Assembly (NCBI RefSeq): GCF_057098645.1
Contig: NZ_CM169472.1
DNA: 64,000 bases
Strand: one strand, 5' to 3'
Notes under the pieces: generated by a model
The model's database searches: none
The model's input: the letters and a program-made list of their open reading frames with translations, nothing else
Told to the model about the DNA's origin: nothing
Shown here: positions 62,081 to 62,153 of the stretch, in pieces
How positions within the stretch are numbered: position 1 is the stretch's first letter
Layout of the letters: each line of letters begins with the position of its first letter
Translations under genes and position numbers: made by a program

Positions 62081-62153
62081 TGACATTCGCTTTGTCAGCT
62101 GTGACAAGCTCCGCAAATCGTGACAATAACCGCTTATGCCTCTATGCCTGACA
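62081..62153. promoter_or_regulatory. Array of phased TGACA repeats in the feaB–feaR intergenic region (candidate FeaR binding sites)
   Basis: GCTGTGACATTC, AGCTGTGACAAGC, TCGTGACAATAA, CCTGACAAGAC spaced about 19-28 bp apart, plus inverted copies. Confidence 0.4.

Follow-up and report, generated by a model that had tools for sequence, protein, structure and literature searches.

Zeng and Spiro reportedly described, in 2013, a binding site for FeaR of the form TGNCA-N8-AAA, which the tynA and feaB promoters each hold twice. The FeaR operator is already published, and it is re-derived here by promoter comparison across genera; we infer the occupancy of the four repeats discussed below from that description. 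FeaR is an AraC-family activator of both tynA and feaB (PMC4640556), and it senses the aromatic aldehydes that are made by TynA (PMC11542736). FeaR from Klebsiella aerogenes drives a biosensor based on the Escherichia coli tynA promoter, PtynA (PMC11542736), and that the K. aerogenes protein works on PtynA agrees with the conservation of the operator across genera. The sites that we analyze very probably belong to this known system, that is, to the operators of an AraC/XylS-family activator of tynA and feaB.

The window (the whole stretch of DNA that was analyzed, 64,000 nucleotides) is from E. coli, of an O145:H28-like lineage. Over the 5.4 kb around the feaB and tynA sites, E. coli C325 and O145:H28 strains are 100% identical to the window, bar 1-2 bases. 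Four genes concern us here: paaZ (55885-57930, + strand), tynA (58178-60451, + strand), feaB (62009-60510, - strand), and feaR (62245-63150, + strand). This is an ordinary, already known regulatory region of E. coli, whose regulator gene is broken in this strain. The E. coli YSP8-1 locus has, at its own positions 2292-5176, a recombinase gene and a frameshifted Tn3-family transposase in the place of paaZ and of the paa genes before it (the part of the window up to ~57950); the replacement ends just before the remnant of the paaZ terminator, and the tynA promoter is intact.

Between feaB and feaR, the pentamer TGACA occurs on the + strand at 62081, 62102, 62121, and 62149 (copies 1 to 4 in what follows), just as the preliminary description reported, and TGTCA is found at 62093. 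The same description placed the four copies about two helical turns apart. Measured, the copies stand 21, 19, and 28 bp apart; of these distances the first alone amounts to two turns, and the series is therefore not regularly phased. Nevertheless, the cluster is not random: Four same-strand copies of TGACA within 69 bp are found nowhere else in the window and arose in only 7 of 1000 dinucleotide-preserving shuffles of it, and three copies of GTGACA within 41 bp arose in none of the 1000. This clustering favors the reading in which all four TGACA copies, together with an inverted repeat upstream of tynA, are FeaR sites arranged in a phased array, and the irregular spacing speaks against it. We return to this reading below with the evidence from conservation.

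We used an alignment of the FeaR protein to collect 80 loci from one-genome-per-species contigs, covering Pseudocitrobacter, Silvania, Leclercia, Citrobacter, Enterobacter, Lelliottia, Kluyvera, Raoultella, Klebsiella, Trabulsiella, Pluralibacter, Buttiauxella, Cedecea, and other genera. The divergent feaB/feaR arrangement is present in 71 of these loci, which yield 69 distinct intergenic sequences. Judged by this comparison, copies 2 and 1, when read on the opposite strand, are the TGNCA cores of two predicted FeaR repeats at feaB. The distal repeat (62106->62091, - strand) is TGTCA-CAGCTGAC-AAA, with copy 2 (62102-06) as its core; TGACA is present at this position in 69/69 orthologous regions, and CTGTGACA in 66/69. 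Its A-tract (62091-93) is exact in 53 of the 69 regions and reads CAA or ACA in the remainder. The TGTCA at 62093-97 falls in the non-conserved N8 of this repeat and is kept in only 4/69. The proximal repeat (62085->62070, - strand) is TGTCA-CAGCGAAA-AAA, and its core is copy 1 (62081-85), a position that reads TG[A/T/C]CA in all 69 regions (TGACA in 59, TGTCA in 7, TGCCA in 3). Its A-tract (62070-72, TTT on the + strand) is found in 68/69. Across genera, TG, CA, and the A-tract are fixed and the third base varies among A, T, and C; from the alignment, this variation at copy 1 would be the degenerate N of the published TGNCA motif. The two repeats are in direct orientation and exactly 21 bp apart, and the dual site is kept in 68 of the 69 distinct regions, spanning more than 15 genera.

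Only copies 1 and 2 behave like FeaR sites. The preliminary description had taken all four TGACA motifs as binding sites for FeaR, and this holds for the two that form conserved cores, and fails for copies 3 and 4, which lack both conservation and an A-tract in register and fall outside the 21-bp phase. Copy 3 (62121-62125, + strand) is not of the FeaR type and lies inside a weakly conserved GA[C/T]AAT element: Its position reads TGACA in 9/69 orthologous regions, compared with GATAAT in 18 and GACAAT in 15, and the best position covering it ranks about 510 in the FeaR site matrix introduced below. As a third FeaR repeat it was rejected, being 19 bp from copy 2 and showing GGA or TTA at the register of the A-tract. 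Given the three GTGACA within 41 bp, a lineage-specific role for copy 3 is conceivable. Copy 4 (62149-62153, + strand) is essentially confined to the window's own group of E. coli strains and occurs in no other genus; the E. coli strain SCPM-O-B-8794 does not have it, carrying CTTGCAAG at that position. It is 28 bp from copy 3, has no A-tract in register, and scores low in the FeaR matrix, and it is most likely a chance occurrence. We also considered copy 4 as a -35 element for feaR and discarded this idea, as a mere 12 nt separate it from the conserved TATAGT and it shows no conservation of its own. In the same stretch, around 62124-62139, there is an element reminiscent of NAC sites, ATA-N9-TAT, which reads GATAATTCCCGCTTAT in Enterobacter and ACA-N9-TAT in E. 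coli; by raw count, the pattern occurs somewhere in 50/69 regions, and we regard the element as a weak idea.

At tynA, the sites are not where they had been placed. The preliminary description proposed the inverted repeat at 57983-57997 as the FeaR site of this promoter; the FeaR repeats are instead two TGGCA repeats at 58048-58084, 50-90 bp downstream of it. The distal one (58048-58063, + strand) is TGGCA-CACCTGCC-AAA, and it is identical in seven E. coli strains; the proximal one (58069-58084, + strand), 21 bp after the distal repeat, is TGGCA-GGTGCAGG-CAA. The complete arrangement, TGGCA-N8-AAA-N5-TGGCA-N8-CAA, was found upstream of tynA in 37 of 40 distinct regions, so that among the loci bearing the dual site the distal form TGGCA-N8-AAA and the proximal form TGGCA-N8-CAA are each present in 37/37. 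After its N8, the proximal repeat reads CAA in place of AAA, which counts against its fit to the motif.

How far could such patterns arise by chance? Over the whole window, the single pattern TGNCA-N8-AAA has 18 matches versus 14.7 expected, and is thus not enriched; three of the 18 lie within 62070-62117 and two upstream of tynA. Because the single pattern occurs at chance frequency, the paired pattern alone is informative. The 64 kb hold a single instance of the strict dual pattern, at feaB, and the relaxed form TGNCA-N8-AAA-N5-TGNCA occurs twice versus 0.066 expected, on the - strand from 62106 toward feaB and on the + strand from 58048 toward tynA. We also built a 22-bp weight matrix from non-Escherichia sites alone, with the four site classes weighted equally. 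Among the 127,958 positions of the window, the matrix places the four half-sites at ranks 1 to 4, with the feaB distal repeat first (23.7), the feaB proximal repeat second (20.1), and the two tynA repeats third and fourth (17.4 each); the next score, 15.9, is inside coding sequence. The whole pattern could in principle be a coincidence in an AT-rich intergenic region, since TGACA is short and the single pattern is no more frequent than expected. We consider this hardly credible, given that the dual pattern is found at the two FeaR target promoters and nowhere else and that more than 15 genera keep it with fixed geometry. For copies 1 and 2 and for the tynA TGGCA repeats, coincidence is already refuted; for copy 4 it is the best account, and it is probably the best account of the inverted repeat as well.

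The repeats are placed consistently with respect to putative promoter elements. At feaB, the predicted -10 hexamer is TACACT (62048->62043, - strand), 21 nt downstream of the proximal repeat, with a predicted start near 62036. A TAnnnT element lies exactly 21 nt past the proximal repeat in 68/68 feaB promoters, and the -10 columns of the alignment are highly conserved; the A-tract of the proximal repeat overlaps the predicted -35. At tynA, the likely -10 is TAATGT (58106-58111, + strand), with an extended -10 TG at 58103-04, again 21 nt past the proximal repeat, so that the geometry from repeat to -10 equals that at feaB. Other genera show aligned TAnnnT or CAGGAT elements 21-22 nt past the proximal tynA repeat. 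A consensus promoter scan called no sigma-70 promoter in the direction of feaB or tynA. This result fits dependence on an activator, and it means that the two promoters were not located by the scan. K-12 has the same sequence at each of the four repeats and at the two -10 regions.

We therefore favor the known FeaR operators as the explanation of these sites, which would work as follows. Each target promoter carries two direct TGNCA-N8-(A/C)AA repeats with a 21-bp period, facing the gene. With the proximal repeat ending 21 nt before the -10, its A-tract would overlap the -35, in a class II layout. Once it has bound the aromatic aldehyde that TynA makes, FeaR would sit as a dimer on the two repeats and recruit RNA polymerase.

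The inverted repeat upstream of tynA is present at 57983-57997, as previously described: TGTGACGTTGTCACA, that is TGTGAC-GTT-GTCACA, with perfect 6-bp arms and a 3-bp spacer. Perfect inverted repeats of this 6-3-6 type number 19 in the window versus 18.2 +/- 3.8 in shuffles, and this one is thus statistically unremarkable. The preliminary description had named conservation in orthologous promoters as one of the points on which its reading would turn, and on this the inverted repeat fares badly: It is absent from the 38 non-Escherichia tynA upstream regions, and of the seven E. coli strains two differ in it, one by a substitution in an arm (GTCACG) and one by a substitution in the spacer. Many genera have the terminator of the preceding gene directly next to the distal tynA FeaR repeat; the ~80 bp that hold the inverted repeat are therefore found only in E. 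coli. We rejected the idea that FeaR binds the inverted repeat, on the grounds of poor matrix score, wrong orientation, and lack of conservation. Of the 127,958 positions, the best one that overlaps it comes in at about rank 443 (score -2.0). Formally its - strand does hold a single match to TGNCA-N8-AAA (57995->57980), and this match, like the nonrandom clustering of TGACA, would favor the phased array of FeaR sites introduced above; but the match faces away from tynA, the other genera do without the inverted repeat and yet keep the TGGCA repeats, and neither it nor copies 3 and 4 are conserved. We hold that a phased array comprising all four TGACA copies and the inverted repeat is very improbable, and that non-conservation has already largely refuted it. 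The earlier interpretation as a whole is partly supported, being half right for feaB and wrong for tynA.

Could the inverted repeat serve another protein? It might be an E. coli-specific operator for a regulator other than FeaR, located in the ~80 bp between the paaZ terminator and the FeaR repeats. Its arms form a perfect dyad, and the divergent E. coli strain SCPM-O-B-8794 keeps the repeat unchanged though the next 40 bp differ at many positions. Moreover, the repeat adjoins an ATGCAT (58000-05), which we take to resemble a half-site of NsrR, and NsrR was reportedly found by Rankin and colleagues in 2008 to bind the tynA promoter. Weighing on the other side are the chance frequency of such inverted repeats, the substitutions in 2 of 7 strains, one of them in an arm, and the lack of a match to any known motif. 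In particular, the half-sites are 5 bp apart and not 6, a gap unfit for CRP, and the repeat is not among the CRP matches with at most two mismatches, so that it was also rejected as a CRP site. An operator of this kind therefore seems quite unlikely. On the simplest account, the inverted repeat does not belong to FeaR and may be functionless. Control of the pathway by NsrR is cited in PMC4640556. More generally, the segment 57998-58040 varies strongly among E. coli strains, and the FeaR repeats and everything downstream are invariant.

Copy 2 is also part of another potential site. It belongs to the left half of a CRP-like sequence, TGTGA-CAAGCT-CCGCA (62100-62115, + strand), which overlaps the distal feaB FeaR repeat and whose left half is perfect. 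In 69/69 regions, the aligned position carries a CRP-like site with one to three mismatches to TGTGA-N6-TCACA. The invariant block CTGTGACA...CCGCAA (62099-62116) could be mainly a CRP site for the feaR and feaB promoters, with copy 2 conserved for CRP as much as for FeaR, a proposal that is compatible with the FeaR operators as the best explanation. All 69 regions have TGTGA-N6-[C/A/T]C[G/A]CA, and in the distant genera the right half is closer to consensus (ACACA, in Buttiauxella and Cedecea). The conservation also goes beyond what the FeaR motif needs: CTG at 62099-62101 is invariant, whereas the same positions before the proximal repeat vary, and CCGCAA at 62111-62116 is conserved. The center of the site, 62107.5, is about 70 bp from both predicted starts (feaB ~62036, feaR ~62178). 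Zeng and Spiro reportedly proposed in 2013 that CRP controls feaR, and the distance from the predicted feaR start fits this proposal. Against these points, the site in the window has two mismatches, and matches of this quality are common (23 versus 28.7 expected), so that it is not significant on its own; CCGCAAA could instead be the A-tract of a third FeaR half-site, one facing feaR (TGACA-N8-AAA, 62102-62117, + strand); and the distance of about 70 bp depends on the predicted starts. We judge the proposal for the block, and likewise the binding of CRP at 62100-62115, to be about evenly poised between true and false. If bound, the CRP-like site would probably serve the divergent feaR promoter, and possibly feaB.

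The putative -10 of feaR is TATAGT (62166-62171, + strand), in the conserved block TTCTTTCCTATAGTCA, and TATAGT, TATATT, or TATACT is present in 54/69 regions; the predicted feaR start (~62178) lies downstream of it. Between this -10 and the start codon there is a tandem TGCAACA-N4-TGCAACA (ATTGCAACACAAATGCAACAAT, 62193-62211), whose conservation across genera is strong: Most of the 69 regions have AAATGCAAC. A regulator might bind here, in the leader or promoter of feaR. Elsewhere in the window, a perfect CRP consensus, TGTGATTAATTTCACA, is found at 19847-19862, and a CRP site with one mismatch, TGTGACGGATTTCGCA, at 55713-55728 in the paaZ-paaA divergent promoter region; the latter is presumably the known CRP site of the paa promoters.

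A more novel reading concerns the block CTGTGACA-N5-CCGCAA, which would be a single CRP site nested in the distal FeaR repeat, about 70 bp from both predicted starts; separately, the inverted repeat upstream of tynA could be an operator, present only in E. coli, for a further regulator. We put this forward tentatively and think it unlikely. Were the nested CRP site real, CRP and FeaR would be competitors or partners at one stretch of DNA, a possible reason for feaB, unlike tynA, to need carbon limitation.

In this strain, the operators have outlived their regulator. The amber stop in feaR noted in the preliminary description is real: In the translation, codon 60 is TAG instead of TGG (W60; 62422-62424, + strand), and RefSeq annotates feaR as a pseudogene with "internal stop" in the near-identical C325 and RM13514. 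The exact 60-nt haplotype carrying the amber codon is present in 26 of 5,426 complete E. coli genomes. Of these, 21 bear the designation O145, O145:H28, or O145:NM, or belong to strain RM9872-C1, and no serotype appears in the names of the remaining five (99-3311, C325, UTME-3, Z1323HEC0422, and Z1323HEC0399). Downstream of the stop, an in-frame ATG at Met83 opens an ORF of 219 amino acids (62491-63150); its product would be a FeaR without the first 82 residues of the ligand-binding domain, with the DNA-binding domain kept.

With feaR stopped at codon 60, the four repeats are left without an activator, and the picture of orphaned operators drawn from the amber stop alone is borne out, as the repeats are intact as in K-12. 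Their identity to K-12 further indicates that the sites have not decayed and that the regulator was lost recently. The target tynA is also interrupted here, by an opal stop (TGG->TGA) at Trp669 of 757 (60182-60184). The underlying change, 60184 G->A, is the sole difference from C325 over 7.6 kb, and its 60-nt haplotype is found in none of the 5,426 complete E. coli genomes; the opal stop is either private to the strain or a sequencing error. The truncation would presumably remove a C-terminal copper ligand known from the structure of the E. coli enzyme (ECAO). The feaB gene is intact in the window. In RM13514 (O145:H28), it is feaB that has a nonsense change, at 61559 (G->A on the + strand), annotated as "internal stop". 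The lesions being different, in tynA here and in feaB in RM13514, relatives that share the feaR amber codon have lost FeaR targets independently. This fits an order of events in which the regulator was lost before its targets, the later losses being independent of one another and probably neutral. As a picture of pathway decay after the loss of a regulator it is tidy and unsurprising, a minor note at the level of the strain. Beyond correct annotation, the analysis as a whole matters little; what it corrects are the true tynA sites, and the number of functional TGACA cores, which is two out of four.

Compared with the closest known systems, the locus resembles first of all the FeaR sites of K-12: the same four repeat sequences, the same two copies of TGNCA-N8-AAA per promoter, and the same targets. 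It differs from K-12 in the amber codon 60 of feaR and in the opal codon of tynA, and the published FeaR site includes neither the inverted repeat nor two of the TGACA motifs. The AraC/XylS class II operators (araI1-I2 at pBAD, and those of RhaS and MelR) likewise consist of two direct repeats with a period of ~21 bp, and here as there one repeat would be available for each DNA-binding domain of the dimer, with the proximal one overlapping a weak -35. Unlike in those examples, the half-site sequence is specific to FeaR, and no distal looping site equivalent to O2 is evident. The candidate sequence at 62100-62115 resembles CRP class I sites, which lie near -61.5 or -71.5, with a perfect left half and with C and C-A of the right half kept; it departs from the class I consensus at two positions and shares its DNA with an activator repeat. 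The likeness of the tynA inverted repeat to CRP sites is one of appearance, with half-sites 5 bp apart as opposed to 6.
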